The notes beneath the pieces are model-generated. The model was given only the letters and a program-made list of their open reading frames with translations, did no database searches and was not told the DNA's origin. The position numbers were made by a program, and so were the translations under genes. A stretch of DNA of 64,000 nt from a bacterium (GTDB lineage: Bacteria > Verrucomicrobiota > Verrucomicrobiia > Limisphaerales > J093), in the NCBI GenBank assembly GCA_021780105.1, contig JAJXZJ010000059.1:3230-67229 (forward strand), in the 5' to 3' direction. Below are positions 2,341-64,000 of the stretch, piece by piece (within the stretch, counting starts at the first letter, position 1; the number at the start of each line of letters is the position of its first letter).

Positions 2341-3590
2341 TCCGTCACATTTTTTCCGAGGCCGTCGGCGCGCTGGCTCATTACCGGCTGCGCTCGGCGC
2401 TGACGATGTTGAGCATCGTCTGGGGCGTGGCGTCGCTGATGCTGCTGCTGGCTTACGGTCAGGGTTTTGAACACGCCCTCACCCGCGCGTTCCTGCAAAT
2501 CGGCAAGGACCTGGTGGTGGTGTTTCCCGGCCAAACCAGCCTGCAGGCCGGCGGCGAACGCTCCGGCCGGCGCATTCCACTCGAATTGAGCGACGTCAAG
2601 GCCATCCAGGACGGCGTGCCGACCGTCGAGGCGGTTTCGCCCGAAGTCCGGCGCTTCTGGCCATGCACGTTCAACGACCGCATCCGCAGCTACGGCGTGA
2701 GCGGCGTTTACGCCGGCTACGCGCGCATTCGCAACGCAGCGCTGGCCCGTGGCCGATACCTTTCGGAGGAGGACGTGCTGCACCGGCGGCGGGTGGTGGT
2801 CATCGGCGACAACCTCCGGAAAGAGTTGTTCAGCGGCCTGCCGGCGCTGGGCAGCGACATCAAAATCAACGGTGTCCGCTTCACCGTCATCGGCATCCTG
2901 GAAAAGAAAACCCAGATCAGCAACTACTCGACACCGGACGACATGACCGCCTTCGTGCCGTTCACGACGCTCGCGGGCATCACCGACGCCCGCTACCTCG
3001 ACGACATTGTCCTGCTGCCCGCCAGCAACCTGTTCCGGGACCGCATCACGGCGGACGTGCGGGCGGCGCTGGCCCGCGCCCACAATTTCAACGTCAACGA
3101 CACGCGCGCCGTGGAAATCATCGAATGGAGCAAATTCCTGGCGCTCGTGACCAGCTTGAGCCTGGGACTGAAAATCCTGCTGACGATCATCGGCACGCTC
3201 ACGTTGAGCATCGGGGCCGTGGGCGTGGTGAACATCATGCTCGTCTCCGTGGCGGAGCGAACGCGGGAGATCGGCGTGCTCCGGGCATTGGGGGCGCGGC
3301 GGAAACACGTCCTCCTGCAAATCCTGTTCGAGGGTTTGATCCTGACGCTGACCGGCGGCTTGCTGGGCTTCCTGCTGGCGGCCGTGCTGATCAAGGCGAT
3401 CGGCTCGCTGCCGTTTCTGGGACCGCTCTTTGAGGACACCTCCGGGCGCAGTGACATTCATCTGGCGGTGTCGTTGTCCGCGCTGGTGGTGTCGAGCACG
3501 ATTCTGACCGCGGTGGGTGTCATCGCAGGGATGATTCCCGCCATCCGGGCGGCGCGACTGGATCCGGTTCAGGCGATCCGGAGCGAATAG
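2337..3590 (+). CDS. ABC transporter permease, MacB/FtsX family (second copy)
   Basis: The ATG at 2337 overlaps the upstream TGA (ATGA). MIRHIFSEAVGALAHYRLRSALTMLSIVWGVASLMLLLAYG... then SVAERTREIGVLRALGA. Same architecture as the preceding gene. The listed ORF start at 1893 is an upstream shadow extension. Confidence 0.85.
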   Translation: MIRHIFSEAVGALAHYRLRSALTMLSIVWGVASLMLLLAYGQGFEHALTRAFLQIGKDLVVVFPGQTSLQAGGERSGRRIPLELSDVKAIQDGVPTVEAVSPEVRRFWPCTFNDRIRSYGVSGVYAGYARIRNAALARGRYLSEEDVLHRRRVVVIGDNLRKELFSGLPALGSDIKINGVRFTVIGILEKKTQISNYSTPDDMTAFVPFTTLAGITDARYLDDIVLLPASNLFRDRITADVRAALARAHNFNVNDTRAVEIIEWSKFLALVTSLSLGLKILLTIIGTLTLSIGAVGVVNIMLVSVAERTREIGVLRALGARRKHVLLQILFEGLILTLTGGLLGFLLAAVLIKAIGSLPFLGPLFEDTSGRSDIHLAVSLSALVVSSTILTAVGVIAGMIPAIRAARLDPVQAIRSE

Positions 3591-49347: not shown

Positions 49348-52173
49348 TCAGGCCAGCTTCTTGATGGCCGCCTTCAACCGCGCGGCGATCTGCTTCTGAC
49401 GCGTCACCGATTCGATCTTCGGATGGTGCAGTTCCCGCACGTAGAACGTGTCCATCGCCGCGCCCTTTTCCGTGCAGATTTTGGCCACCACGATGTCCAC
49501 GTCCAGCTCCGCCAGCGTCCGCACGATGGCGAACAGCAGCCCGAACCGGTCCTCGGCCTCGATCTCGAGCACGGTGCCCAGCTCGGACGCGGCGTTGTCG
49601 AACGCCACCTCCGTCGGCAGCCGCTCGCCCTCGGACAGGCGTGGCAGCGCCACCGGCTTTTGCTGGAAGATCACCCGCGCCAGCGCCTCCTCGTCCTGCA
49701 GGCCCTCGTCCAGGTGTTGGCTGAAGAGCTGCTGCTGGCGCTCGGTGGCGGGCGAACTCGTCGCGGCATCCGTCACCAGGAACGTGTCCAGCACGATGCC
49801 ATCGGCGCGCGTGAACACCTCGGCGCTGAGAATGTTCAGCCGCGCCGCGGTCAGGGCGCCGGCAATCTTGCTGAACAGCCCGGTGCGGTCCCAGGTGCAG
49901 AGCCGGAGCCGGGAGTAGCCGCGATCCTCGTCATGCACCCACTCGACGACCGGCGCGAGCACGGCCGCCTGCTCGGCGCTCAACTGGACCATGAACCGGT
50001 GCGTGAGTGCGAGGTCGGCGAGTATTTCCGGGCCGGTGCGCAACTGGTAATAGCGCGCCGGCAGCGTGGCGAAATGCGCCGTCAGCTCGTCGTCGCTCAC
50101 GGTCTGGAGCGCTGCGGCGCGGATTTCCTCCTTCAACACCTCCCGCTGCCGCGCGTCCACCTGCAAGGGTTGTCCTCGGCCGGCCAGATACTCGTGGGTG
50201 CGGTGATGCAGCAGCCAGAGCAGCGATTCCTTGTGCCCGGTCCAGAGCTGGTCGCTCGTGCCCATGGAATCCGCAAACGTCAGCAGCGTGAGCAGGTTGA
50301 GCCGCTCCAGGGTCTGGACCAGCGTGGCGAAGCGGCGGATTTCCCCCGGATCGTCCAGGTTGCGCCGCTGCGACACCTGCACCATCGCCAGGTGATGGTG
50401 GACCAGGAAATGCAGGGCCGCCGTGGCCGCGGGATCCAGGTCCAGCCGCCGGGCCACGCTCAGGGCAATCCGCCCGCCGTCCTCCGCGTGGTGCCGGCTG
50501 CCGGTGGCCTTGCCGGTGTCATGGAGCAGCATGGCGAGGTAAAGAACGAACGGCCGCTCGACCTCCTGGAACAGCGGCGCATAGGCGGCAAACGGCCGCT
50601 CGGTCGCGCCCTGGATCTGGTCCAGTTTTTCCAGGCAGACAAGGACGTGCTCGTCCACGGCGTATTGGTGGAAGAACTCGTGCTGGACGCGGTTCGTGAG
50701 CTTCTCAAACGGCGGCAGGTAGCGCCCCAGCAGGCCGACCTCGTGCATGGCGCGCAAGGCCGGCGCCACCTCGCCGCGCTGGTTGAGGATTTCCAGGAAG
50801 GTTTTGCGCACGTGCGGGTCGCGGCGGAAGTTCTCGTCCAGCAGCTCCCCCCGGTGGCGGAGGCGCTGGACAATGTCCGGGCTGAGGGTGAGATGGCGCT
50901 GCTGGGCGTAGCGGAACACGCGCATCAGGCGCCGCGGATCCTCGCGGAACACGCGCTCCACCTCGGCGTGGACCTGCCCGTCCACAAACTTGAAGCCGTC
51001 CACCGCGTAGGCCGCGTTGCGGCGGCGTTCGCGCAGGAAGTGCCGCAGCGTGGGCAGGCGATGCGGCTGCGGCAACAGCGCCAGGCGCTGCTCCAGCGTG
51101 CGCGTGATGAGGTAGATCCGGCGCGAATGCGTGTAGTAATCGCGCATGAACTTCTCCTGCCGGACGGCCAGCGAGCGGTCCGTGTAGCCGAGGTGGTAGG
51201 CCACCGCCGGCTGGTAGTTGCGTGTCAGCACGTCCACCGGCCGCTCCGTGAGGTAGTGCAGTTCGTTGCGCACGCGCAGCAGGAAATCGTAACCGGCCTC
51301 CAGTTGCACCTCCTCCTCCTCGCTGATGAGGGCTTCCTTCCGCAGGTCCGCGAGCGTGCGGCTCTGGTATTTGAAGAAGGCCATCCAGAGCAGATTTTGA
51401 AAATCGCGCAGCCCGCCGCAACCGTTTTTGATGTTCGGCTCCTGCATGGCGGCGGAGTTGCCGTATTTGGTCCGGCGCGCGGCCTGGTCGGCCAGCCGCG
51501 CCTCAATGTATTCGTTTTCGTGCCGGCGCACGCACCGGGCCAGCACCGCCTGCTGCATCGCGGCAAACAACTTCGCGTCGCCGCAGATCAGCCGCGCCTC
51601 GATCAACGACGTTTTCGACTGCATGTCGCGGTTCGCGACCTCGACGCAGTCCGCCACCGTCCGGACGGAGTGGCCGACCTTCAGGCCGATGTCGAAAATC
51701 AGCCCGCCGGTGAACAGTTCCAGCGGCGCGGGCGGCGCTTTGCGCGCCCGGTTCTCGCCCTCCAGCAGCAGCATCACGTCCAGATCGCTGCACGGATTCA
51801 ACTCGCCCCGGCCGTAGCCGCCGATCGCCACCAGGGCGCAGGTCCGGCACACCTCGGCCGCCGCCGCGGCCGCTCCCGCCTGCAAATCCTCCATCGTGCG
51901 GCACAGCAGCGCGTCCACCACCCCGGCCCGGGCGCGGCAGATCGCGCGGCCGCCGGCGCCGTTCCGATGGAGCATGCGCAGGCGCTGCGTCTCGAAGCGC
52001 AGGAATCGCCGGTAGCGCGCCACCTCCTGCGCCGGATGCGTGCCGGGCGGGAGGGTGAGGCGCTTGTCGGCGTCGGCTTCGATGCTGTCGAGCAAGGTTT
52101 GCACCGCGCCGGAAGGTAGGCACCGGCCGGCGTCGCCGCAAGCGCGGAGCGCCGGCGAGTGTTTCCGTGACAA
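49348..52173 (-). CDS. glnD: [Protein-PII] uridylyltransferase / uridylyl-removing enzyme
   Basis: 941 aa. Nucleotidyltransferase motif ([21 protein letters not shown]), HD domain (LLHDTGK) and two C-terminal ACT domains. The start is uncertain: TTG at 52173 with no nearby ATG. Confidence 0.9.
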
Positions 52174-52204
52174 CGCTGGCGCGGTTTTGGCATAACACCG
52201 CGCG

Positions 52205-53509
52205 ATGCACGATTTCCGCTACATCCGCGGGCGGCTCCACTGCGGCCAGGTCGCCCTCGAGGCGCTCGTGGCCCGGTTTGGCACGCCGCTTTACGTCTAT
52301 TCGCAAACGACGCTGGCCGACCATTTCCAGAAGCTGGCCGGCGCGCTGGCGCCGCTGGACCACCGCATCTGCTACGCGCTCAAGGCGAACTCGAACCTGG
52401 CCGTGCTCCGCACGTTCGCCGGGCTGGGCGCGGGGTTCGACCTCGTCAGCGGCGGCGAACTCGAGCGCGTCCTGGCCGGCGGCGGCGACCCGGCCAAATG
52501 CGTCTTCGCCGGCGTCGGCAAGACCGAGGCGGAGATCGCGCTGGCCCTGCGCCACGGCATTTACTGCTTCAACGTCGAGAGCGAGCCGGAGCTGGTCCGC
52601 ATCAACCGCGTGGCGGCGCGTTTGAAAAAGGTTGCGCCGGTGGCCGTGCGCGTGAACCCGAACGTGGACGCCGGCACGCATCACAAGATCACCACCGGCA
52701 CCTACGAGAACAAATTCGGCATCGCCTTCGAGACGGTGGAAGGCGTCTATGCCCGCGCGGCGAAATTGAAAAACCTCCGGCTGCGCGGCCTCCAGATGCA
52801 CATCGGCTCCCAGCTCACGGAGGTGACGCCGTTCCGGCAGGCCGTCGAGCGCGTGGCCCCGCTGGCGCAGCGGCTGGCGGCGCGGCACGGCTTCGAGTTC
52901 CTCAGCATCGGCGGCGGCCTGGGCATCGTCTATGAATCGGCGCTGGCCAGCGGCGCGGCGGCCTGGTGGCGCACGCCCGCGGGTCGCGGCATCCTCACGC
53001 CGGCCGGCTACGCCGCCGCGCTGGTGCCATTGCTCCGCCCGCTGGGGTTGAAGATTCTCGTCGAGCCGGGCCGCTTCCTCGTGGGCAATGCCGGCATTCT
53101 CGTGACCCGCGTCGAATACGTGAAGCGCACCGGCCATAAGAATTTTGTCATCGTGGACGCCGCCATGAACGACCTCATCCGGCCGGCGTTTTACGACGCC
53201 TACCACGAGATCGTGCCGGTGCGGCGCAAACCCGGCGCCACGGTGCCCTCGGATGTCGTCGGCCCGATCTGCGAGTCCGGCGACTATTTCGCGAAAGACC
53301 GGCCGCTGCCAAAGGTTGGCGAAGGCGACTGCCTGGCGCTGCTCAGCGCCGGCGCCTACGGCTCGGTGATGGGCTCGAACTACAACAGCCGTCCGCTTCC
53401 CGCCGAGGTGCTGGTGGACGGCGCCCGCGCGGCGCTGGTGCGCGAGCGCCAGCCGGTGGCGGCGATCTGGGCCGGCGAACGGCTGGCGCCCTGGCAACGC
53501 CGCCGATGA
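52205..53509 (+). CDS. lysA: Diaminopimelate decarboxylase
   Basis: ICYALKANSNLAVLR (PLP Lys), GAGFDLVSGGEL, HIGSQ, SIGGGLGI, VVGPICESGDYF, AGAYG. Confidence 0.92.
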   Translation: MHDFRYIRGRLHCGQVALEALVARFGTPLYVYSQTTLADHFQKLAGALAPLDHRICYALKANSNLAVLRTFAGLGAGFDLVSGGELERVLAGGGDPAKCVFAGVGKTEAEIALALRHGIYCFNVESEPELVRINRVAARLKKVAPVAVRVNPNVDAGTHHKITTGTYENKFGIAFETVEGVYARAAKLKNLRLRGLQMHIGSQLTEVTPFRQAVERVAPLAQRLAARHGFEFLSIGGGLGIVYESALASGAAAWWRTPAGRGILTPAGYAAALVPLLRPLGLKILVEPGRFLVGNAGILVTRVEYVKRTGHKNFVIVDAAMNDLIRPAFYDAYHEIVPVRRKPGATVPSDVVGPICESGDYFAKDRPLPKVGEGDCLALLSAGAYGSVMGSNYNSRPLPAEVLVDGARAALVRERQPVAAIWAGERLAPWQRRR

Positions 53510-54042
53510 AGAACATCGTCTATTTCGATCTGGAAACGCAGAAATCCGCCGACGACGTGGGCGGCTGGGGCAACATTCGTGACATGCGGATGAGCGTGGG
53601 CGTCACCTTCAGCACGACGCGCGGCACCTACGAGATTTACCCCGAATCGCGCGTGAACGAGCTGATCGAGGAACTGCGGCGCGCCGACCTCGTCGTGGGC
53701 TTCAATGTCCTCCGGTTCGACTACGAGGTGCTGGTCGGGCACAACCCGTTTTTCGATCCGGCGCAGGTACCGACGCTGGACATGCTGGTTGAATTGCAGA
53801 AGACCCTGCCGCACCGGCTCTCACTGGACGCCATCGCCACGGCCACGCTCGGCGTGGAAAAAACCAGCGAGGGCCTGCAGGCCATCCGCTGGTATCGCGA
53901 GGGCAAGCTGTTGGAGATCGCGGAATATTGCTGCTTCGACGTGAAGATCACCCGGCTCGTCCACGAATACGGCGCCGCGCACCGGCAGCTTCATTTCGTG
54001 AACCGCTTTGGCAAACGCCTCACCGTGCCGGTGGCGTGGTGA
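53506..54042 (+). CDS. RNase H-like / DEDD 3'-5' exonuclease domain protein
   Basis: The ATG overlaps the lysA stop. IVYFDLET (Exo I), VVGFNVLRFDYEVL (Exo II), EYCCFDVKIT (Exo III-like). Confidence 0.6.
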   Translation: MKNIVYFDLETQKSADDVGGWGNIRDMRMSVGVTFSTTRGTYEIYPESRVNELIEELRRADLVVGFNVLRFDYEVLVGHNPFFDPAQVPTLDMLVELQKTLPHRLSLDAIATATLGVEKTSEGLQAIRWYREGKLLEIAEYCCFDVKITRLVHEYGAAHRQLHFVNRFGKRLTVPVAW

Positions 54043-54060
54043 CGCGGCGGGGACCGCGCC

Positions 54061-57000
54061 TCACTTCTGCGCCGTCTGTTCCGCAGCCGGCGGCACGGCG
54101 GGCTGTTCGATTTCCCAGCCGCCGCCCAGCGCCTTGTAAACCGCCACCAGCGAGGTTGCCGTCTTGAGCTGGCTCTGCGCCAGTTGCTCCTGGATGGACA
54201 ACTGCGTCCGTTGCGCGTCCAGCACGGTGAGGAATTCGTCAATGCCGCTCTGGTACCGTTGGTTGGCGAGCGCCACGGCGTCTTCCGCGGCGCGGGCCGA
54301 GGCAATCAGGTAGTCTCGGCGGGCCTGCGCGCGGTCGAACTCCACCAGCATGTCCTCGGTTTCTTCCAGCGCCGTAAGCACGGTCTTTTCATACGTGGCG
54401 AGCTGCGCGTCGGCCTCCGCGTGCGCGGCCTGCATCCGGGCGCGCACCCGGCCCAGGTCCAGCGCGGCCCAAGTGATCTGCGGCCCGAAGGAGTAGGTGT
54501 CGGCGCCGGATTTGAAAAGGCCCGACACTTCGCCCGCCGACACGCCGAGATTGCCGTTGAACGTGACCCGCGGGAACAGGTCGGCCGTCTCCACGCCGAT
54601 GCGTGCCGTGGCGGCGGCGAGGGAACGCTCGGCGGCGCGGATGTCCGGCCGGCGGCGCAGGAGTTCCTCCGGCCGGCCGAGGTTCACCAGCGCGGGCAGC
54701 GCCGGGATGGGCGCGGGGCTGGCGAGTTCCGGCTCCAGTGTTGCGGGCGGCTGGCCGATCAGGACGCTCAGCCGGTAGATGTTTTCCTTGATGCTGGCCT
54801 GCAGCGGCGGGACGAGCGCCAGCGTGGCGTTCAATTGCGAGCGGGCGCGGGCGGCGTCCAGCTCCGTGGCGCGGCCGGCCTTGAGCTTGGCCAGCGTGAT
54901 GTCCAGCGTGTCCTGCTGGTTGGTCACGTTGCGGCGGGCGACATCCAGTTCGTTTTGCGTGCCGCGCAACTCAAAATAATTCCGCGCCACCTCGGCAATG
55001 AGGCTCACGAGCACGTCCCGGCGCGACGCCTCGGCTGCGGCGACGTCCGCCGTGCTGGCCTCGACCGAACGCCGGACGCGGCCGAACAAATCCACCTCCC
55101 AGGTCGCGTCGAAGCCGGCACTGTAAAGCTGCAGCTCGCGTGCGCTGCGCGGCACAGAGAAGAAGGGAATCGAGTCCTTGCTCGCCAGCGATTTGTTGTA
55201 ACCGGCGCTGCCGGTGATGGTCGGCGCCAGGTCCAGCACCGCCTGGGAGCGCAACGCGCGCGCCTCCCGCAGGCGCGCGGTGGCGATGCGGAGGTCGTGG
55301 TTCGTCGCCACGGCGCGGTCCACGAGCTGGTTGAGCGTGGCGTCGTTGAAGCCGCGCCACCAGGTGACGGCGACGGGTGCGGCGGCGAAATTCGTCGCCC
55401 CGCCGTTGGCGAACGCGGCGCTCACCTGGGTTTGCGGCGGGTGATAATTCGGCCCGGCCGCGCAGCCGCTGAGGAACAGCGTCGAGACGGCGCCCAGCAG
55501 AGCCAGGCTGGTCAACACGCCGGCGATCTTGCCGCCGGGGAGCGCGGCGCCGGCGGCCCGTTTCCGGCGCTCCAGCACGCCGCGGATGACAACGTAGAAG
55601 ACCGGCGTCAGGAAGATGCCGAAAAACGTCACGCCCAACATGCCGAAAAACACCGCGGTGCCGATGGCCACGCGCATTTCCGCGCCGGCGCCGCGGGAGA
55701 GCATCAGCGGGATCACGCCGAAGGTGAACGCGAACGAGGTCATCAGAATGGGCCGCAGCCGCAGGCGCGAGGCTTCGATGGCCGCCTCGACACGGTTCCG
55801 GCCGGCGTCCTGAAGCTGCTTGGCGAACTCGACGATGAGGATGGCGTTTTTGCACGCCAGGCCCATGAGCACCACCAGCCCGATCTGGGTGAAGAGGTTG
55901 TTGTCAATGCCCCGCAGCCAGATGCCGCCGATGGCAAAGAGCAGGCACATGGGCACGATGAGGATGATCGCCAGCGGGAGCGACCAGCTTTCGTATTGGG
56001 CGGCGAGCACCAGGAACATCATCAGCACGCAAAGCGGGAAGATGTAGAGCGCGGTGTTGCCGGCGAGGATTTGCAGCAGGTTCAAATCGGTCCACTCGAT
56101 CGTCATGCCATGCGGCAGGACGCGCTGCGCCAGCTCGTCCATGGCCCGGATCGCCTCGCTGGCACTGACGCCCGGCGGCGTCGCGCCGGTGATTTCCGCC
56201 GTCGGATACATGTTATAATGGCCGACGAGGACCGGCGCGTTGATGTCGCGCACCTTCACCAACGTGCTCAGCGGAATCATTTCGCCGTGGTCGTTGCGCA
56301 CCTTGAGGTTTTTGACGTCGCCCGGCTGCGCGCGGAACGGCGCGTCGGCCTGCGCCACGACGTGGTAGGGCCGGCCGTAGATCGTGAAGTCGTTCACGTA
56401 AAGCGAGCCGAGATAGACGGAGAGCGTGTCCCACACGTCGCTCAACGGCACGCCGAGCGACTCGGCCTTGGCGCGGTCCACGTCGAGATTAACCTGCGGC
56501 ACGCCGGCGCGGAAGGTGGACAACGCCCCGGCGATCCGGTGTTGCGGGTCCTGCATGGCGGCGCCGGCGAGCTGGTAGGTGGCCGCCTGCAATGCCGTGT
56601 AACCGTTGTTTCCGCGGTCCTCGACCTGGAGCTTGAACCCGCCCACGATGCCCAGGCCGTCCACCGGCGGCATGCCGAAGAAACGGACGACCGCGTCCTG
56701 GATGTTCGCGGCCGCGAGCCTGGCGTTCAGTTGGTTGACGATCGCGTCGGCCGTGAGGCCCGTCTTCGCGCGCTCTTCAAATGGCTTGAGGCGGATGAAC
56801 ATGCTGGAGGCGTTGGCGCTGTTGCCCAGCGAAACCAGCGAAAGGCCGGCGAACTCGGAGACGGCCTCGATCCCGGGCGTCTCCCGGATGAGCTGGTAAA
56901 CCCGGCTGCTCACGCCTTCCGTGCGCTGGAGCGAGGCGCCGTCCGGAAGCTGCATGTAGCAGAAGATCGCGCCCTTGTCCTGCGTGGGAATGAAGCCGGT

Positions 57001-58704
57001 GGGCACCTTCGCAAACCCAAACCAGGTCAGCGCCAGCAGGCCGGCGTAAAGCACCAGCCCGAGGCCGCAGTGGCGCAATATCCGGCCCAGTCCCGCGACA
57101 TAAGCCAGCCGGCCACCCTCGAACACGCGGTTGAACCCGGTGAACAGCCAGCCGACGGAGCCGTGAATGATACGCCCGATCGTGTCCTTCGGCGCGTGGT
57201 GCGGCTGGAGCAGCAACGCGGCGAGCGCCGGGCTGAGCGTGAGCGAGTTGAACGCCGAGATCAGCGTCGAAATCGCAATGGTCAGCGCGAACTGCTGGTA
57301 GAACTTGCCGGTGATGCCGCTGATGAACGCGGTCGGCACGAACACCGCGCTGAGCACCAGCGCGATCGCAATCACCGCGCCGCTGACCTCGTCCATCGCC
57401 TTGCGCGCCGCGTCCGCCGGTGCCAGCCCCTCGGCGATGTGCCGCTCGACGTTTTCCACGACGACGATCGCGTCGTCCACCACGATGCCGATGGCCAGCA
57501 CCAGGCCAAACAGCGTAAGGTTGTTGATCGAAAAGCCAAAGGCCGACATCGCCGCGAAGGTGCCGATCAACGACACCGGCACGGCCACCAGCGGGATGAT
57601 CGAGGCCCGCCAGTTTTGCAGGAACAACACCACGACGAACACGACCAGCAGCATGGCTTCAATCAGCGTGTGAAGCACGGCGTTGATGGATTCGCGGATG
57701 AAGGCCGAGGTGTCGAAGGCGACGCGATAGTCCAATCCGTCCGGAAAATCCTTCTTCAACTCCTTCATCGCCGCCTCAATGGCATTCGCCGTCTCGATGG
57801 CGTTCGAGCCGGGCTGCTGGAACAAGGCGATGGCCGCGGCGGGCCGGCCATTGAGCCGGCCGTCAATGCTGTAGTCGTTGGCCCCCAGTTCGATCCGTGC
57901 CACGTCCCGCAGCCGCGTGATCTGGCCGCCGGCGTCCGCCTTGAGGACGATCGCACCGAACTCCTCCGGCGTGATGAGCCGGCCCTGCGTGCGGATGGCG
58001 ATCTGGAAGAGGTTGTTGGCCGGCTGCGGCGCCTGGCCGAACAAACCGGCGGCAACCTCCACGTTTTGCCGGCGGATGGCGGCGATCACGTCGCTGGCGG
58101 TGAGGCTGCGCGCGGAAATCTTGCTCGGATCGAGCCAGATCCGCATGCAATAGTCCCGCGCGCCGAAAATGATCGAGTCGCCCACGCCCGGCAGCCGCGC
58201 CAGCACGTCACGCACGTGGAGGTAGGCGTAATTGCTGAGGTAGATCGGATCGTATTTGCCGTTGGGGGAGACGAGGCTGACGATCATCGCAATGGTCGGC
58301 GAGCGTTTGCGGGTGATGACACCGAGGGTGCGCACCTCCTCCGGCAATCGTGGCATGGCCGAGTCCACACGGTTTTGCACGAGCACCTGCGCGGTGTTCG
58401 GGTCGGTGCCGACCTTGAACGTGACCGAGAGCCGCACCGAGCCGTCGCTGCTGCACTGCGCCGACATGTAGAGCATGTCCTCCACCCCGTTGATCTGCTC
58501 CTCCAGCGGCGTGGCCACGGTGTCGGCGACGGTTTCCGCACTGGCGCCCGGATACGTGGCCTGGACGAAAATCGTCGGCGGCGTGATTTCGGGATACTGG
58601 GCCACCGGCAGCGTGAACAGCGCCACCAGCCCCAACACCACGATGAAGATGGAAAGCACGGCCGCGAAAATCGGCCGGCGGATGAAGAAATGGGAAAATC
58701 TCAT
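54061..58704 (-). CDS. RND efflux permease (AcrB-like) continuous with a NodT-family outer-membrane factor lipoprotein in a single ORF
   Basis: ATG at 58704 (MRFSHFFIRRPIFAAVLS). The RND part runs to about aa 1045 (...PVFYVVIRGVLERRKR). With no stop it continues as AAGAALPGGKIAGVLTSLALLGAVSTLFLSGCAAGPNYHPP, with the lipobox Cys codon at 55462..55464, followed by a full OMF to 54061. Confidence 0.8.
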   Translation of the reverse strand: MRFSHFFIRRPIFAAVLSIFIVVLGLVALFTLPVAQYPEITPPTIFVQATYPGASAETVADTVATPLEEQINGVEDMLYMSAQCSSDGSVRLSVTFKVGTDPNTAQVLVQNRVDSAMPRLPEEVRTLGVITRKRSPTIAMIVSLVSPNGKYDPIYLSNYAYLHVRDVLARLPGVGDSIIFGARDYCMRIWLDPSKISARSLTASDVIAAIRRQNVEVAAGLFGQAPQPANNLFQIAIRTQGRLITPEEFGAIVLKADAGGQITRLRDVARIELGANDYSIDGRLNGRPAAAIALFQQPGSNAIETANAIEAAMKELKKDFPDGLDYRVAFDTSAFIRESINAVLHTLIEAMLLVVFVVVLFLQNWRASIIPLVAVPVSLIGTFAAMSAFGFSINNLTLFGLVLAIGIVVDDAIVVVENVERHIAEGLAPADAARKAMDEVSGAVIAIALVLSAVFVPTAFISGITGKFYQQFALTIAISTLISAFNSLTLSPALAALLLQPHHAPKDTIGRIIHGSVGWLFTGFNRVFEGGRLAYVAGLGRILRHCGLGLVLYAGLLALTWFGFAKVPTGFIPTQDKGAIFCYMQLPDGASLQRTEGVSSRVYQLIRETPGIEAVSEFAGLSLVSLGNSANASSMFIRLKPFEERAKTGLTADAIVNQLNARLAAANIQDAVVRFFGMPPVDGLGIVGGFKLQVEDRGNNGYTALQAATYQLAGAAMQDPQHRIAGALSTFRAGVPQVNLDVDRAKAESLGVPLSDVWDTLSVYLGSLYVNDFTIYGRPYHVVAQADAPFRAQPGDVKNLKVRNDHGEMIPLSTLVKVRDINAPVLVGHYNMYPTAEITGATPPGVSASEAIRAMDELAQRVLPHGMTIEWTDLNLLQILAGNTALYIFPLCVLMMFLVLAAQYESWSLPLAIILIVPMCLLFAIGGIWLRGIDNNLFTQIGLVVLMGLACKNAILIVEFAKQLQDAGRNRVEAAIEASRLRLRPILMTSFAFTFGVIPLMLSRGAGAEMRVAIGTAVFFGMLGVTFFGIFLTPVFYVVIRGVLERRKRAAGAALPGGKIAGVLTSLALLGAVSTLFLSGCAAGPNYHPPQTQVSAAFANGGATNFAAAPVAVTWWRGFNDATLNQLVDRAVATNHDLRIATARLREARALRSQAVLDLAPTITGSAGYNKSLASKDSIPFFSVPRSARELQLYSAGFDATWEVDLFGRVRRSVEASTADVAAAEASRRDVLVSLIAEVARNYFELRGTQNELDVARRNVTNQQDTLDITLAKLKAGRATELDAARARSQLNATLALVPPLQASIKENIYRLSVLIGQPPATLEPELASPAPIPALPALVNLGRPEELLRRRPDIRAAERSLAAATARIGVETADLFPRVTFNGNLGVSAGEVSGLFKSGADTYSFGPQITWAALDLGRVRARMQAAHAEADAQLATYEKTVLTALEETEDMLVEFDRAQARRDYLIASARAAEDAVALANQRYQSGIDEFLTVLDAQRTQLSIQEQLAQSQLKTATSLVAVYKALGGGWEIEQPAVPPAAEQTAQK

Positions 58705-58735
58705 AAGCAACCCCGCTGCAACAGGAACGAGTGGT

Positions 58736-59950
58736 TCAGTGGCCGACCGGCGGCTTCGCGACCGCCGCGCCGGCGTTGTCCGCCGCGGTTGCGGCCGGGG
58801 CGGTTTGCGGCTCCACCGGCGTGCCGGGGCGCAACATCATCACGGTCATCAGGCCGTTCACCACGACCCGGTCATCCGTCGAAAGGCCTTTCAGGATCGC
58901 GCGCCAGTCGCCGTAGGCCCGGCCGGTGGTGATGGGCCGGTTCTCCACGACGTTGGTCCGGTTGACGAGGTATACGTATTTGTAGCCCTGGTCCGAGCCA
59001 ATGGCCACGTCCGGGATGACCATCGCCTCCTGCGGTGTCCCCGCCATCACGCGAAGCCGGGCGAACATGCCCGGCACGAGCGCGCGGTCGGCGTTGTCGA
59101 ACACCGCGCGGAGGCGGATGGTGCCGGTCTGCGGGTTCACCTGGTTGTCGAAGAAATCCAGCCGGCCCGCGTGCGGGAAACCGGTCTCGTTCGCCAGACC
59201 CAGGTCGCAGGGAATGGCTCCGAGCCGGTCGCCGGCGCCGGCCACCGCCTTGGCGAACGCGCGGTAGTTCGCCAGCGCCGCCTCCTCGACGTCGAAGTAG
59301 CCGTAAATCGGGTCCTGGGAAACCAGCGTGGCAAGCACGGTCGGGCTGCTGCCGCCTTGCACCAGGTTGCCGACGGTCACCAGGCGCTGGCCGATCTTGC
59401 CGCTGATGGGCGCGGTGACGCGGGTGTAGTCCAGGTTCAACTTCGCGGCGGCCTCGGCGGCTTTCGCCGCGGCAAGCGCGGCCTCCGCTTCCCGGCAGGC
59501 CTTGCTGCGGCTGTCGAGTTCCTCGTCAGAAATGGCCTTCGTGCCGCGCAATTCGTCGGCGCGCTGGAGGTCGTTCTTCGTCAATTCGAGGTGCGTTTCC
59601 GCCTGCTGCCGCTGGGCCTGCGCGCGATCCAGGTCGGCCTGATACGGCTTGGGATCAATCACGAACAGCAGGTCGCCCGCCTTCACCTCCGCGCCGTCCG
59701 TGAAATGGATGGAGTCCAGGTAGCCCGTGACCCGCGGACGGATGTCCACCGACTCGACCGCCTCCACGTGGCCGGGATACTCGTCCCAGTTCGTGACGGT
59801 CATCATCCGCGGCGTGGCCACGGTGACCTTCGGCGTCATCGGCGGCGGCGGTTTGGGGCGGCTGCAGGACGTCAACGTCAGGGCGCCGACGAACACGGCG
59901 AAACCCAGCGCCAGCGGGGATTTCAACAACGACACAAATGTGGGGTTCAT
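58736..59950 (-). CDS. Efflux RND transporter periplasmic adaptor subunit (lipoprotein)
   Basis: ATG at 59950. Lipobox ALTLTSCS. VEAVESVDIRPRVTGYLDSIHFTDGAEVKAGDLLFVIDP, a coiled-coil hairpin, and TRVTAPISGKIG. Confidence 0.9.
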   Translation of the reverse strand: MNPTFVSLLKSPLALGFAVFVGALTLTSCSRPKPPPPMTPKVTVATPRMMTVTNWDEYPGHVEAVESVDIRPRVTGYLDSIHFTDGAEVKAGDLLFVIDPKPYQADLDRAQAQRQQAETHLELTKNDLQRADELRGTKAISDEELDSRSKACREAEAALAAAKAAEAAAKLNLDYTRVTAPISGKIGQRLVTVGNLVQGGSSPTVLATLVSQDPIYGYFDVEEAALANYRAFAKAVAGAGDRLGAIPCDLGLANETGFPHAGRLDFFDNQVNPQTGTIRLRAVFDNADRALVPGMFARLRVMAGTPQEAMVIPDVAIGSDQGYKYVYLVNRTNVVENRPITTGRAYGDWRAILKGLSTDDRVVVNGLMTVMMLRPGTPVEPQTAPAATAADNAGAAVAKPPVGH

Positions 59951-60026
59951 GGTAGTTTCCAAATAAGCGAAAGCGGTGGAGTCAAGTCGGGCGACGGCAA
60001 ACGCCTTGGTCGGGTGCGTCAGTCAA

Positions 60027-60728
60027 TCATGTTCGGTTCGTCTGCCGGGTGGCGCCGGCCCGGCGCGGGGCCTTGGCCTTGCGCGACAACGGCGGGGCCG
60101 CGAGTCCCGCGGAGAAGAAGCCCATCATTTGCTCGAACACGGTCTCGGTGTCCGCCGGGTTGCAAATGCCCTTCGTCACCGTTTCCATTTTCGCGGGATT
60201 GCACAGGATGAACGCCAGCGCGCCCCAGATGAATTCCATCCGCCACAGAAGATCCCGCTGAGGCAAATCCGGCAGCGCGTGCTGAAAGGCCTTGAGATAC
60301 GCCGCCCGGATCGCGGCGTGGGGCCGGGCCAGCAGTTGCTGAATCTGCGAGCTTGGCTCGGTCACGACCCGGCCGACCAGGCGTTTGACCGCCTCCTGCC
60401 GGGCCGAGCCGCCTCCCACCAGCCGGAGCGTGGGCAGAAGCAGGGTTTCCAGAATCGCCTCCACGGTGGGCGGTTGACCGCCGGCCGCCGGTTCCAGATG
60501 GCCGAGCGCGGACAACTGCTCCTCACGCAACGGACGAAACCGCCGGTCCATCACCGCCAGCATCAATCCTTCCTTGGACCCGAAATAATAATAAACCGTG
60601 GCAAGATTGACGCCCGCCTCCTGCACGATGCGACGCAGGGAGGCGCCTTCGAAGCCCGCGTTGGCAAAGGCGTTCTCCGCCGCATCCAGGATGCTGACTT
60701 TCCGGTCCGTTTCCGGCGTGGTCGTCAT
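60027..60728 (-). CDS. TetR/AcrR family transcriptional regulator
   Basis: ILDAAENAFANAGFEGASLRRIVQEAGVNLATVYYYFGSKEGL. First gene of the tetR-adaptor-RND operon. Confidence 0.9.
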   Translation of the reverse strand: MTTTPETDRKVSILDAAENAFANAGFEGASLRRIVQEAGVNLATVYYYFGSKEGLMLAVMDRRFRPLREEQLSALGHLEPAAGGQPPTVEAILETLLLPTLRLVGGGSARQEAVKRLVGRVVTEPSSQIQQLLARPHAAIRAAYLKAFQHALPDLPQRDLLWRMEFIWGALAFILCNPAKMETVTKGICNPADTETVFEQMMGFFSAGLAAPPLSRKAKAPRRAGATRQTNRT

Positions 60729-60733
60729 GTATT

Positions 60734-60759
60734 GAACGTTTGTTTAAAACGAACGTTTG
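60734..60759. promoter_or_regulatory. Two GAACGTTTG direct repeats (each with an AACGTT palindrome) directly upstream of tetR; candidate operator
   Basis: GAACGTTTG occurs at 60734..60742 and 60751..60759, starting 6 nt upstream of the tetR ATG (60728). Confidence 0.35.
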
Positions 60760-60900
60760 ATAACTAGCGCCGCCCGCCGAACGTGTCAAATGAAAGATTG
60801 CGCTGGGTTCGTGGTCCGGCGCGGCTGGACCCGGCTTCCCGTGCGGCTTCGCCGCCCCGGCGCGCATCCGGACTGCTTGCCGCCGTGCCGGCAAGCGCAC

Positions 60901-61016
60901 GAGATCTCGGTAGTGTCCTGTTTTACGGAATTTTAATGGTAGGGCGGCGCTGCTGCGCTGCCAGGCCGAGCAGCCGCCCGGCCCTACCCTCGAAAACAGG
61001 ACACTGTCCAGATCTC
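60901..61016. repeat. ~116-nt compound palindrome (GGTAGGGCGG core) in the tetR / beta-helix intergenic region
   Basis: Nested stems: gagatct/agatctc (60901..60907 / 61010..61016), agtgtcctgtttt/aaaacaggacact (60912..60924 / 60993..61005), ggtagggc/gccctacc (60938..60945 / 60981..60988), gctgct/agcagc (60949..60954 / 60969..60974). Confidence 0.7.
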
Positions 61017-61154
61017 CCCGCTTTGACTTTTTGCGTAATGTAGCCGATTAATTGCCAAAATCGGTGAATGCAAGGTCACGGTTCAGCCCGTGGGTCGTTG
61101 GCCGGTGTTGAGTGGTCACGGCAGCCGTCATTCGCCGGAGCGTCTCGTTGACAC

Positions 61155-64000
61155 ATGCCTAAACAACCCTCCCGCCGTGTGGGCGCGCCTGGCAGCGGTC
61201 GCCGGATCCTGGTCTTCTGGATGGTGTTCGCGCTGGCTTTGCTGGTGGCCGCCGGCCGGGCGCGGGCGGCCACGTTGACGGTGACGACGACCGCCGACTC
61301 GTATGCGTCGCCGGCACCGCTCTCCCTGCGCGCCGCCATCATCGCCGCCAACAGCGCGACGAATCCCGGGCCGGACACGATCATCCTTCCCGCCGGCCAC
61401 TACACCCTGAGCCTTCCCGGTGCCGGCGAGGACGCGGCGGAGACCGGCGATCTGGACATTACCGACGATCTCACCATCGTGGGCGCCGGCGCAGCCGCGA
61501 CCACGATTGACGCCACCGGCCTGGGCGACCGCGTCTTCCAGGTGATCCGCGGCCACGTCCAGATCCGCGGTGTCACCCTCAAGGGCGGCCGTCCGCCCGA
61601 AGGCACCGGCGGGGGCATTCTCAACTTCGGCAACCTGGAGCTGACGGACTGCGTGATCGCGGACAACGACGCGGCGAACGCCGGCGCCGGCATCAGCAAC
61701 CAGAATTTCTCGAATCACGGCACCAATTACTTCGGCTCGCTGAAACTCACGCGCTGTGTGTTCCAGGGCAACGGCCAGGTCGTGCCGCCCAACACCGGCG
61801 GCGCGCTGTATAGCGTCAACGCGCTCACGATCGCCGACTGCACCTTCACCAACAACCTCGGCCGCGCGGGCGGCGCCCTGTATGCCGCCGGCACCAGCGA
61901 TGTCCGCCGGAGCCTGTTCGCCGGCAACACCGCGACGCCGAACGGCGGCGGAGCCATCCTCGTTCCGGTCGGTGGCAGGCTGAATCTGACGGACTGCACG
62001 CTGGCGGCCAACACTTCGACCAGCGACGGCGGCGGAGGCGCCCTGGCCACCACCACCAACCTGGCGGCGCCGCAACCTAATGCGAGCGTGTTGAACTGCA
62101 CGTTCGCGGACAACGTCGCGCCGAACACAGCTTCCGGCGCGACGGTGGCGATTATTTCCGGCTCGGTGACGCTGGAAAACACGATCGTCCGCCAGTCGGG
62201 CGCGATTGCCGCGTTCAATGTCCCGCCGGCTTCGCGCGGGCACAACCTCACCAGCGACGCCTCCGGACCGTCGGACGGCCCCGGCGACCGGTTGAACACC
62301 GACCCGCAACTGGGTTCATTGCAGGACAACGGCGGCCCGACCGCCACGCTCGCGCCGCAGCCGGGAAGTCCCGCGATTGACGCCGGCGCCAGCGCGGATG
62401 CGCCGTTCACGGACCAGCGCGGTTATCCGTGCTGGGTGGGCGCGGCGGCGGACATCGGCGCCGTCGAAACCCAGACGCCGTTTTGGGTCACGAACGTCAA
62501 CGATGCCGGACCGGGTTCGCTGCGCCAGGCCATCCTTGCGGTCAACAGCGCCAACGGCGACGACAGCAGCATTCTCTTCGACATTCCGGGCACCGGTCCG
62601 TTCCGCATCCAGCCGCAGAGCGCGTTGCCCGCGTTGACGCACCCGGCGGTCGTGGACGGTTACAGCCAGCCCGGCGCCAGCCCGAACACATTGACATTTG
62701 GCGACAACGCCACGCCGCAGATCGTTCTGGATGGCGGCGCGCTGGCTCCTTCCAGCGCAGCCGGCGTGCTGTTAAACGCGGACCGTTCCGCCGTCCGCGG
62801 CTTGGTAATTCAAGGCCAGTTTCAGGCCGGCGTGCAGGTGAACGCCAGTCAGACCCGCCTCGAAGGCAACTTCATTGGCACAGACGGGACCGGCAAACTG
62901 AGCCAGCCCAACAACCAGGGCATTGCGCTTGCACCAACCAGCCGCGCGGCGGTGATCGGTGGCGTCACCCCGGCCACGCGGAATCTGGTTTCCGGCAACA
63001 CCGGGGCGGGCATTTACCTGAGCCTTGGCACCGGCAATCAGATTCTCGGCAATTACATCGGCGCCGATGCCACCGGCCTCGCCGCGCTGGGCAACGGCGA
63101 CGCCGGCATCCGTTTCGACAACGCCAGCACGAACACCGTTGGCGGCACGAATGCCAGCGCCCGCAACCTTATTCTCGGCAATCACGGCGCCGGCATCAGC
63201 CTCAGCGGCGCGGACAACGCCGTGTGGGGCAACACGATTGTCTCGAATACCGCAGCCGGTGTGGCGGTCCTGACCGCCCCCGGACCGGCGACGGGCAACG
63301 TCATCGCGGGCAATTCAATCTACGGCAACGGCACGCTGGGCATTGACCTTGGCGGCACCGGTGCAACCCTGGCCAACGATCCCGGTGACGCGGACGCCGG
63401 CCCGAACAATCTCCAAAATTATCCCGTCCTCGTCCGCGCAAGCCCGGTCGGCGGTGGGTTGCAGATTCAATATTCCGTGCCCACCGACCCGGCCAACGCG
63501 AGTTATCCGTTGACCATCGAATTTTTTCTCGCCGACAGCCGGGGCCAGGGCATGACGCCACTGGGCAAGGCCATGTATCCGGCGTTGCTTGCCGGCCTGC
63601 CCGCCACGGCCGTCGTCACCGCAACGCTGAGCGACACACAGCAGCTCGTGGCCACGGCCACCGATGCCGCCGGCAACACGTCGGAACTCTCACCGCCGGT
63701 CCCGGTCAACCAACCGCCCACAATCAATCTCGCCTTTGAGCCGCCGGCCGGCTTCGCCCATACCGCCACCGGCCCGCAAACGGTGGTTGCGCGCGACCTC
63801 GACGGCGATGGCTACGCGGACGTGGTGCTCAACGACCCTGGCAGCAGCAACGTCTGGGTCTGGCCGAACACGAGCGTGGGGCACGGCAATCCGGCCGACT
63901 GGCTGGGCACGCCGCTGAAGTTTGTCACCGGCATTTCACCGGCGGCGGTCGCGGTCGCCGATCTCGACGGCGATGGCAAACCGGACCTGGTCACGGTTTC
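61155..64000 (+). CDS. Very large secreted right-handed beta-helix (CSLREA / choice-of-anchor-Q-like) and FG-GAP/VCBS repeat protein; 3' end beyond the window
   Basis: Hand translation from the ATG at 61155 found no stop to nt 64000. MPKQPSRRVGAPGSGRRILVFWMVFALALLVAAGRARAATLTVTTTADSYASPAPLSLRAAIIAANS...PDTIILPAGHYTL. Repeated G-N-x-I beta-helix turns. End region reads DLDGDGYADVVL and DLDGDGKPDLVT. It is not in the supplied ORF track because no stop codon is reached. Confidence 0.8.
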   Translation, partial: MPKQPSRRVGAPGSGRRILVFWMVFALALLVAAGRARAATLTVTTTADSYASPAPLSLRAAIIAANSATNPGPDTIILPAGHYTLSLPGAGEDAAETGDLDITDDLTIVGAGAAATTIDATGLGDRVFQVIRGHVQIRGVTLKGGRPPEGTGGGILNFGNLELTDCVIADNDAANAGAGISNQNFSNHGTNYFGSLKLTRCVFQGNGQVVPPNTGGALYSVNALTIADCTFTNNLGRAGGALYAAGTSDVRRSLFAGNTATPNGGGAILVPVGGRLNLTDCTLAANTSTSDGGGGALATTTNLAAPQPNASVLNCTFADNVAPNTASGATVAIISGSVTLENTIVRQSGAIAAFNVPPASRGHNLTSDASGPSDGPGDRLNTDPQLGSLQDNGGPTATLAPQPGSPAIDAGASADAPFTDQRGYPCWVGAAADIGAVETQTPFWVTNVNDAGPGSLRQAILAVNSANGDDSSILFDIPGTGPFRIQPQSALPALTHPAVVDGYSQPGASPNTLTFGDNATPQIVLDGGALAPSSAAGVLLNADRSAVRGLVIQGQFQAGVQVNASQTRLEGNFIGTDGTGKLSQPNNQGIALAPTSRAAVIGGVTPATRNLVSGNTGAGIYLSLGTGNQILGNYIGADATGLAALGNGDAGIRFDNASTNTVGGTNASARNLILGNHGAGISLSGADNAVWGNTIVSNTAAGVAVLTAPGPATGNVIAGNSIYGNGTLGIDLGGTGATLANDPGDADAGPNNLQNYPVLVRASPVGGGLQIQYSVPTDPANASYPLTIEFFLADSRGQGMTPLGKAMYPALLAGLPATAVVTATLSDTQQLVATATDAAGNTSELSPPVPVNQPPTINLAFEPPAGFAHTATGPQTVVARDLDGDGYADVVLNDPGSSNVWVWPNTSVGHGNPADWLGTPLKFVTGISPAAVAVADLDGDGKPDLVTV

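Follow-up and report, generated by a model that had tools for sequence, protein, structure and literature searches.

Can the inner-membrane pump and the outer-membrane channel of a tripartite efflux system be made from a single gene, and how would the two parts then reach different membranes? The question is raised by a reading frame in a 64,000-nucleotide stretch of DNA (positions 3,230 to 67,229 of contig JAJXZJ010000059.1, assembly GCA_021780105.1; hereafter the window) from a bacterium of the Verrucomicrobiota. This frame joins a complete permease of the resistance-nodulation-division (RND) type to a full-length outer-membrane factor (OMF) of the NodT type, with a lipoprotein signal between them. 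In Gram-negative bacteria, tripartite efflux pumps are the principal machinery of intrinsic drug resistance, and how pump and channel are matched in amount and find each other is still debated. A preliminary description of the locus had read the gene as a membrane polyprotein; the analysis given here points the same way, and we consider it probable that the product is one membrane chain, exported via a thirteenth helix and split at the lipobox into two proteins.

Two full-length modules in one frame

The gene occupies positions 54061..58704 of the minus strand and is a single open reading frame (ORF) of 1547 codons plus stop, with an ATG at 58704, a TAG/TAA-type stop at 54061..54063 and no internal stop. 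Inspection of the translation agreed with the preliminary description as to the single ORF, the peptides quoted from it, the codon of the lipobox cysteine (Cys1081, 55462..55464) and an in-frame GTG at 55576..55578 (VLERRKR). The first module (residues 1-1049, 55558..58704) is an RND permease of the HAE-1, OqxB/AcrB-like kind; it matches Pfam ACR_tran over residues 3-1041 (profile positions 1-1021 of 1021, 1134 bits) and NCBIfam RND_permease_1 over residues 4-1041 (1409 bits, against a cut-off of 1250). Solved RND chains (OqxB-like, MexB, AcrB, CmeB) align from residue 1 to residues 1042-1049, which correspond to their own C-terminus, the top matches for residues 1-1049 being 8yr0, 7wlv and 7cz9 (E = 0). 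The translation contains the motifs IVVDDAIVVVENVER, GLACKNAILIVEF and RLRLRPILMTS, which would hold the counterparts of the AcrB proton-relay residues D407 and D408 (transmembrane helix TM4), K940 (TM10) and R971 (TM11); the K, the R and the flanking motifs are invariant in the homologue alignment.

An RND chain usually ends in the cytoplasm just past TM12, and here 498 further residues follow. They comprise a basic linker and hydrophobic segment, 31 residues in all, and the mature NodT/OprN-type OMF (residues 1081-1547, 467 aa, 54064..55464), which has two matching stretches to Pfam OEP; NCBIfam outer_NodT (TIGR01845) is matched over residues 1073-1529 with 377.6 bits, against a cut-off of 210, and over profile positions 2-460 of 460. 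OprN is the nearest solved relative of this part (E 4e-34 for its first 200 residues). The HMM searches thus bear out, with all four profiles, the earlier claim of a complete RND permease followed by a full-length NodT-type OMF. No Protein Data Bank entry was found to hold both modules.

The G+C content at third codon positions is similar along the common frame (0.90 in the RND part, 0.95 in the linker and 0.88 in the OMF part), the junction reads as nonsense in the other two frames, with stops in one of them, and the same 1547-aa protein is recorded, identical, on three contigs. A plus-strand ORF of 1582 aa (54184..58932) spans the fused gene from end to end; it matches no family and was rejected as, most likely, a high-GC shadow ORF. 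Such shadow ORFs are typical of DNA of 65-67% GC and could mislead gene callers that rely on length. That the RND::OMF fusion is genuine can be regarded as, at least, very nearly certain.

The junction carries a lipoprotein signal peptide

After TM12 (…LTPVFYVVIR), the chain continues with a basic tail, GVLERRKRAAGAALPGG, then K1059, then 21 uncharged residues, IAGVLTSLALLGAVSTLFLSG, and then Cys1081. In terms of features, a basic, presumably cytoplasmic, tail and linker (residues 1043-1058, VLERRKRAAGAALPGG, 55531..55578), which overlaps the last residues of the RND module, is followed by the putative core of an internal signal peptide, or would-be TM13 (residues 1059-1080, KIAGVLTSLALLGAVSTLFLSG, 55465..55530), and by the lipobox L-S-G-C (residues 1078-1081, 55462..55473), where the predicted cut by signal peptidase II (LspA) lies between G1080 and C1081. 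From P-V-F-Y to Cys1081, there are six K/R residues and one D/E residue; the hydropathy maximum of the uncharged segment, taken over 15 residues, is 2.03.

Lipoprotein signals are recognised by a PROSITE PS51257-type rule, which asks for no charge in the six positions before [LIVMFWSTAG](2)-[LIVMFYSTAGCQ]-[AGS]-C, K/R upstream and a Cys within the first ~35 residues. The stretch GAVSTL-FL-S-G-C, with K1059 and RRKR upstream, agrees with the sequence pattern; the position does not, the cysteine being residue 1081 of the ORF. The same holds for the N-terminal signal peptide with its own start codon that is expected of an OMF: here the signal is internal, with no ATG and no Shine-Dalgarno sequence.

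A comparison with the Protein Data Bank placed Cys1081 at residue 1, the lipid-modified cysteine, of the mature chains of OprN (5iuy, 5azo), OprM (1wp1), CusC (3pik), MtrE (4mt0), CmeC (4mt4) and OprJ, so the cysteine that the preliminary description had proposed as the lipoprotein N-terminus is where solved OMFs begin, and the hydrophobic segment leads into the OMF fold with no spacer to spare. The lipobox is kept across 74 homologues that bear the junction. Residue +2, after the cysteine, is Ala in the window protein and A, M, K, T, V, S or L in the homologues, never Asp; by the Escherichia coli rule, a non-Asp residue at +2 is compatible with sorting of the lipoprotein to the outer membrane.

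AlphaFold2 modelling of a 363-residue junction segment gave a model of low confidence (pLDDT 66.7, pTM 0.33), which was used for secondary structure only. In this model, TM12 and the tail are predicted to form one helix, followed by a low-confidence loop (1054-1058) and a separate 20-residue helix (1059-1078), after which the predicted chain is unstructured up to the conserved WW motif.

Fused and separate genes among relatives

A scan of GTDB (one genome per species) with the junction segment yielded 80 loci, each of which was inspected codon by codon, since tblastn alignments can run through stops. Alignments spanning both modules were therefore rejected as proof of fusion; six loci that gave them (L015, L020, L023, L026, L028 and L039) hide an in-frame stop. 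An uninterrupted RND::OMF ORF was found at about 22 loci (L004-L014, L016-L019, L021, L022, L024, L025 and L038) with 60-88% identity, nearly all labelled Verrucomicrobiota and originating from many independent studies and assemblers; the locus L031, from a Planctomycetales metagenome-assembled genome (MAG), is also fused (45% identity). L004, at 88%, comes from SPRUCE, and the same unbroken junction is seen in dozens of metagenome proteins. Separate genes are present in all Verrucomicrobiaceae, among them two cultured species, Prosthecobacter fluviatilis and Brevifollis gellanilyticus, in a sub-clade comprising L015, L020, L030, L034, L035 and L037, and in L033; the RND parts of the unfused L033, L030, L034, L035 and L037 are 80-87% identical.

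In neighbour-joining trees, whether of the RND or the OMF part, the fused state lies at the base of the clade of the window gene, with the separate state nested inside. Because of this arrangement, the fusion appears to predate the diversification of the clade, to about 63% RND identity; to judge from the trees, it has been retained since and undone at least once or twice within the clade. Since separate genes have been regained, the fusion is not obligatory.

How little separates the two states is apparent from the unfused loci. The cultured relatives begin the OMF within the RND stop, in the +1 frame, e.g., ...cATGAAGCCCACTAA in Prosthecobacter, and L037 reads TAA-T-ATG from the RND stop to the OMF start, with MKVTIPSLLGALLLCVAG|C after it. 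In such unfused loci, some 24 residues of RND tail and some 18 of OMF signal peptide together match the 37-45 residues that separate PVFY from Cys where the genes are fused, and fusion is therefore the expected outcome of the loss of a stop codon or of a one-base indel; by this comparison, the former OMF signal peptide would have been kept whole. Some of the nested unfused loci (L015, L020, L030, L034, L035, L037, L033) have new spacers of 100-380 nt, and the spacer of L020 contains a long inverted repeat (…aggaggaaacagagagaacggagtgcgtctctctgtttcctc…), which suggests fission by insertion.

Two features of the comparison set deserve mention. The long-read contigs L002, L003, L027, L029, L032 and L036, with names of the contig_NNNN or MFD… kind, are frameshifted throughout, the operon being split into many short called genes, and L016 belongs to the same style of assembly; such fragments give rise to apparent database proteins of 500-630 aa that look like an OMF with an RND tail, and they dominated the first protein search. 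A "short" architecture, based on the hits of 630 aa or less in that search, was rejected: P0009 and P0087 are pieces of frameshifted long-read assemblies, and the others come, for the most part, from contigs only a few kb long. In addition, the taxon given for several contigs with Verrucomicrobiota-like operons (L007, L008, L019, L023, L030, L034 and L038) is Binatia, Acidoferrum, Burkholderiales, Limnocylindrales or Methylacidiphilum, which either mis-binning or horizontal transfer would account for. The "Methylacidiphilum" contig has a GC content of 65.5%, and the assignment of fused MAG contigs to Binatia, Acidoferrum and Methylacidiphilum was treated with caution.

Distant fusions and exchange of the cleavage site

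Full-length fusions surfaced only in an exhaustive search of 1.84 billion cluster representatives, not in the first protein search. Among the best 150 clusters at 50% identity, which were inspected, about 40 span the RND::OMF junction and 12 of these are full length (1372-1541 residues, 30-47% identity), some of them from other RND subfamilies. Named sources include Acidobacteriota/Bryobacteraceae, Muribaculaceae and Kiritimatiellota bacterium B12222; the fusion of the latter, WFB35000.1, is encoded on a closed 4.43-Mb chromosome, in the same TetR-adaptor-fusion layout as in the window. All 12 distant full-length fusions have a lipobox at the junction (LTGC, LQGC, LSGC, LCGC, LGGC, LGSC, ISGC, FSGC, ASGC, MSSC, LTGC and SVSC).

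One fused clade, recognised by …FYV[TV]LMKLG…, is informative as to what is being conserved. Some of its members have the lipobox LSGC, LNGC or LTGC, and others have lost the cysteine and carry A-K-A, A-N-A, A-T-A or A-R-A just before a conserved VGPDY (P0082, P0087, P0096, P0101, P0105, P0112, P0066 and P0122 were compared with P0064, P0089, P0126 and P0196, as lipobox Cys versus A-x-A). This looks like the exchange of a signal-peptidase-II-type site for one of the signal-peptidase-I type, with the fusion persisting and the OMF turning from a lipoprotein into a non-lipoprotein. Because the Cys-less subclade carries A-x-A sites, a cleavage site appears to be preserved even though its type changes, and the exchange of one type for the other, with the fusion kept, is hard to explain unless cleavage matters. 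Every full-length fusion retains a signal-peptidase site, either lipobox or A-x-A.

Linker, internal starts and selection

Among the fused loci, the distance between PVFY and Cys (37-45 residues) takes six different lengths, always in frame, and the linker sequence is almost unconserved except for the basic cluster, the hydrophobic core and the lipobox. No start codon in the linker is conserved, and the candidates have no Shine-Dalgarno sequence: in L010, L019, L024, L025, L038 and L031, the stretch from TM12 to the hydrophobic core is free of ATG, GTG and TTG, and the start-like codons of the other fused loci are Val or Leu codons at scattered places. In every unfused locus for which both the lipobox Cys and an OMF start could be identified, an ATG precedes the Cys by 13-21 codons (by 40 in L030), and several of these ATGs follow a GGAG- or AGGA-like Shine-Dalgarno sequence. 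Of the 12 distant fusions, eight or nine lack a linker Met, and three or four keep one near the hydrophobic core.

In comparisons of orthologous fused pairs, dN/dS ranged from 0.05 to 0.43 in the OMF part and from 0.06 to 0.19 in the RND part; constraint is weaker in the short linker. These ratios argue that the OMF part is translated and functional and stands under purifying selection in the fused frame.

Proposed maturation and alternative explanations

We infer from these features that the gene is translated as one chain, that the chain acquires an extra helix and that it is then cleaved. The ribosome would make a single chain of 1547 residues, inserted co-translationally; the 12-helix RND permease would enter the inner membrane, and its basic tail (ERRKR) would be kept in the cytoplasm by the positive-inside rule. 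The 21-residue hydrophobic segment would then insert N-in/C-out as a thirteenth helix and drive Sec translocation of the 467-residue OMF domain, a task that would be comparable to the export of the RND part's own two periplasmic loops of about 300 residues. Lgt would add diacylglycerol to Cys1081, LspA would cut before it and Lnt would N-acylate it, upon which Lol and BAM could carry the released lipoprotein channel to the outer membrane; the spent signal peptide would stay on the pump as an extra C-terminal helix. Pump and channel protomers would be synthesised in strictly equimolar amounts. Such an obligate 1:1 synthesis fits the 3:3 protomer ratio of tripartite pumps, and it is approximated in the unfused relatives by translational coupling.

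Several points weigh against this maturation. The window gene itself has in-frame GTG or TTG codons 38, 18 and 17 codons before the Cys, the junction model is of low confidence (its pLDDT of 66.7 falling to about 50 in the helix), and the clade has reverted to separate genes at least once or twice. Lgt and LspA are not known to act on a signal peptide placed behind a polytopic protein of 1050 residues, and the cleavage by signal peptidase II is a prediction from sequence.

The codons mentioned above are also what would make a different account attractive, in which the OMF is made separately by internal initiation in the linker (e.g., at GTG 55576..55578 or GTG/TTG 55511..55516), the long ORF being incidental read-through. 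The unfused relatives, where an ATG overlaps the RND stop or follows it as TAA-T-ATG, are tightly coupled, so there was an ancestral start at this place, and there is still a Met just ahead of the hydrophobic segment in a few distant fusions (P0186, MARIRRRK...; P0207, MGKVAKV...; P0178). Against this stand the lack of a conserved start, with six or seven loci having none at all and the candidates elsewhere having no Shine-Dalgarno sequence, and the scarcity of linker Met among the distant fusions; moreover, if the OMF had its own start, upstream frameshifts or stops would be neutral, yet all six linker lengths are in frame. Since several members have no candidate start of any kind, internal initiation is not a family-wide solution, and we regard it as unlikely. 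The GTG at 55576..55578, which the preliminary description had offered as a separate start, is not conserved in the fused orthologues, although some initiation there may occur in the window gene.

A chain that stays uncut, with an OMF-like domain tethered to the pump by the thirteenth helix and serving another role while a separately encoded OMF partners the pump, is quite improbable. Genomes often carry several OMF genes, and nothing direct speaks in its favour; the coincidence of Cys1081 with residue 1 of mature OMFs leaves no spacer with which a tethered domain could reach the outer membrane, the presence of a lipobox or A-x-A site in every fusion lineage would be unexplained without cleavage, and the full beta-barrel and alpha-barrel OMF profile is under purifying selection. 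In assembled AcrAB-TolC and MexAB-OprM, the OMF has its lipidated N-terminus at the outer membrane, and a distance of more than 150 Å separates it from the inner membrane; because the fused chain has no tether that could span this distance, cleavage or separate synthesis is required geometrically. As to whether the fusion stems from faulty assembly or sequencing, or from a stop codon lost by accident very recently in this genome, some close relatives do have separate genes, with RND parts 80-87% identical, and frameshift errors are present in the long-read contigs of the comparison set. Nevertheless, the same fused ORF occurs in independent short-read assemblies of many studies and in a closed chromosome, the protein is identical on three contigs, the coding signal in third-position GC is continuous across the junction and the fused state is ancestral to the clade. 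The lost stop or sequencing error considered in the preliminary description was thus contradicted by the orthologues, the fusion being shared by about 22 relatives and not unique to this assembly; for the family, an artefact or a recent accident can be excluded, and at the locus itself either is very unlikely, with a probability close to nil.

The one-chain maturation outlined above is consistent with each computational prediction that could be tested, namely, conservation of the fusion, the position of the cysteine, the kept cleavage site, the absence of a conserved start and purifying selection on the OMF part. For the RND::OMF fusions as a whole, we lean towards the view that they are recurrent membrane polyproteins, occurring in assemblies whose assignments cover at least five phyla and matured by Lgt and LspA at an internal signal, with 1:1 synthesis and a 13-helix pump, and that one subclade has switched to signal peptidase I.

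Operon and genomic neighbourhood

The fused gene is preceded on the minus strand by two genes, whose calls were taken from an identical 87-kb metagenome contig, L001 (ENA ERZ27236874). The first gene of the cluster (60027..60728, a 233-aa ORF) encodes a TetR-family regulator (PF00440 TetR_N and PF17939); the second (58736..59950, 404 aa) encodes a periplasmic adaptor, or membrane fusion protein, of the AcrA/MexA type, with BSH_RND, HH_MFP_RND, Beta-barrel_RND and RND-MFP_C matches. In the ORF list the adaptor extends over 58736..59962, and it ends 31 nt before the start of the fused ORF. By its predicted gene content, the locus is an ordinary tripartite RND operon, the last two cistrons of which have been joined into one. 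A promoter and terminator scan of 53400..61200 found no promoters and seven terminator-like sites, against 7.3 expected from a shuffled background, and gave no evidence of an internal promoter or terminator in that region.

The TetR gene has as its neighbour a very large plus-strand gene, which extends from about 61155 to beyond 64000 (1..5550 of L001) and runs off the window; its product exceeds 2720 aa and has beta-helix, FG-GAP, cadherin-like and Big_9 repeats. Downstream of the fused gene, the other strand (49423..54042, plus) carries a GlnD-type uridylyltransferase gene, an ornithine/DAP decarboxylase-family gene and a small RNase H-like ORF; the stop of the latter (54042) is 18 nt from that of the fused gene, the two being convergent, and no terminator-like site was detected between them.

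Comparison with known systems

Full-text literature searches found no paper that describes or tests a natural RND-OMF fusion, although absence from such searches is no proof of absence. One fused member bears the JGI name 'HAE1 family protein/NodT family efflux transporter outer…', and NCBI names such proteins 'RND permease' or 'outer membrane subunit'; because these products of 1500 residues are named for only one module, their operons look partnerless. Predictors that look for signal peptides at the N-terminus only will likewise miss the internal lipoprotein. Should the proposed maturation hold, such fusions would be, to our knowledge, the first natural signal peptidase II substrates with a deeply internal signal, and they would provide a natural case of one ORF supplying the two membranes of a diderm. 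The existence in nature of a single-gene version would speak for repeated selection for equimolar co-synthesis; it would also show that Sec, Lgt and LspA probably cope with a signal peptide behind a large polytopic protein and that RND pumps tolerate an extra C-terminal helix. For structural work, the fused genes may offer a ready design for stoichiometric co-expression of pump and channel.

Among the closest systems are the unfused operons of Prosthecobacter fluviatilis KACC 12649, Brevifollis gellanilyticus NBRC 108608 and the sister MAGs represented by L037 and L030. They have the same operon, with RND parts 57-87% and OMF parts 47-70% identical to those of the window, and the OMF signal peptide directly follows the RND tail; in contrast to the window, their OMF has its own ATG, which overlaps the RND stop (+1 frame) or lies one base past it. 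The fused and unfused orthologous operons are, therefore, a one-base or stop-codon change apart.

The mexEF-oprN, mexAB-oprM and oqxAB operons share with the window the gene order of TetR-type regulator, adaptor, RND permease and NodT-type OMF lipoprotein. The RND part is nearest to the solved chains of the OqxB/AcrB/MexB type and the OMF part to OprN, and OprN and OprM have their lipobox Cys at the same aligned position. Unlike in these operons, pump and channel of the window form one ORF, the OMF signal is internal, about 1050 residues from the N-terminus, and cleavage of the chain would leave the pump with 13 transmembrane helices.

In logic, the closest precedent is FbcH of Bradyrhizobium japonicum, reportedly described by Thony-Meyer and co-workers in about 1989-1991 as a cytochrome b - cytochrome c1 polyprotein that is split at an internal signal peptide; the cut is said to be made by signal peptidase I, both products staying at the inner membrane and the second subunit being released 1:1. 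As in FbcH, by these accounts, a polytopic inner-membrane protein is followed in the window ORF by an internal export signal, and the two parts are subunits of one complex; the same layout, two subunits and a hydrophobic segment ending in a signal-peptidase site, is found in the window ORF. Unlike in FbcH, the site in the window protein is a lipobox, i.e., of the signal peptidase II type, and the product would be bound for the outer membrane; only the Cys-less A-x-A subclade would match FbcH in the peptidase used.

A single-chain fusion within the RND superfamily is also represented by SecDF of Thermus thermophilus (PMC8277102, section 5.7.6.3). SecDF resembles the window gene in that the subunits are separate in most bacteria and form one polypeptide in some lineages; it differs in that it joins the halves of one inner-membrane protein, for which no cleavage is needed, whereas the modules of the window protein belong to different membranes. 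Set beside all these systems, the components and the operon of the window are ordinary; what differs is that pump and channel share one ORF, that the lipoprotein signal is internal and that the pump is predicted to have 13 helices. The efflux biology is unchanged, and it is the route of biogenesis that is unusual.

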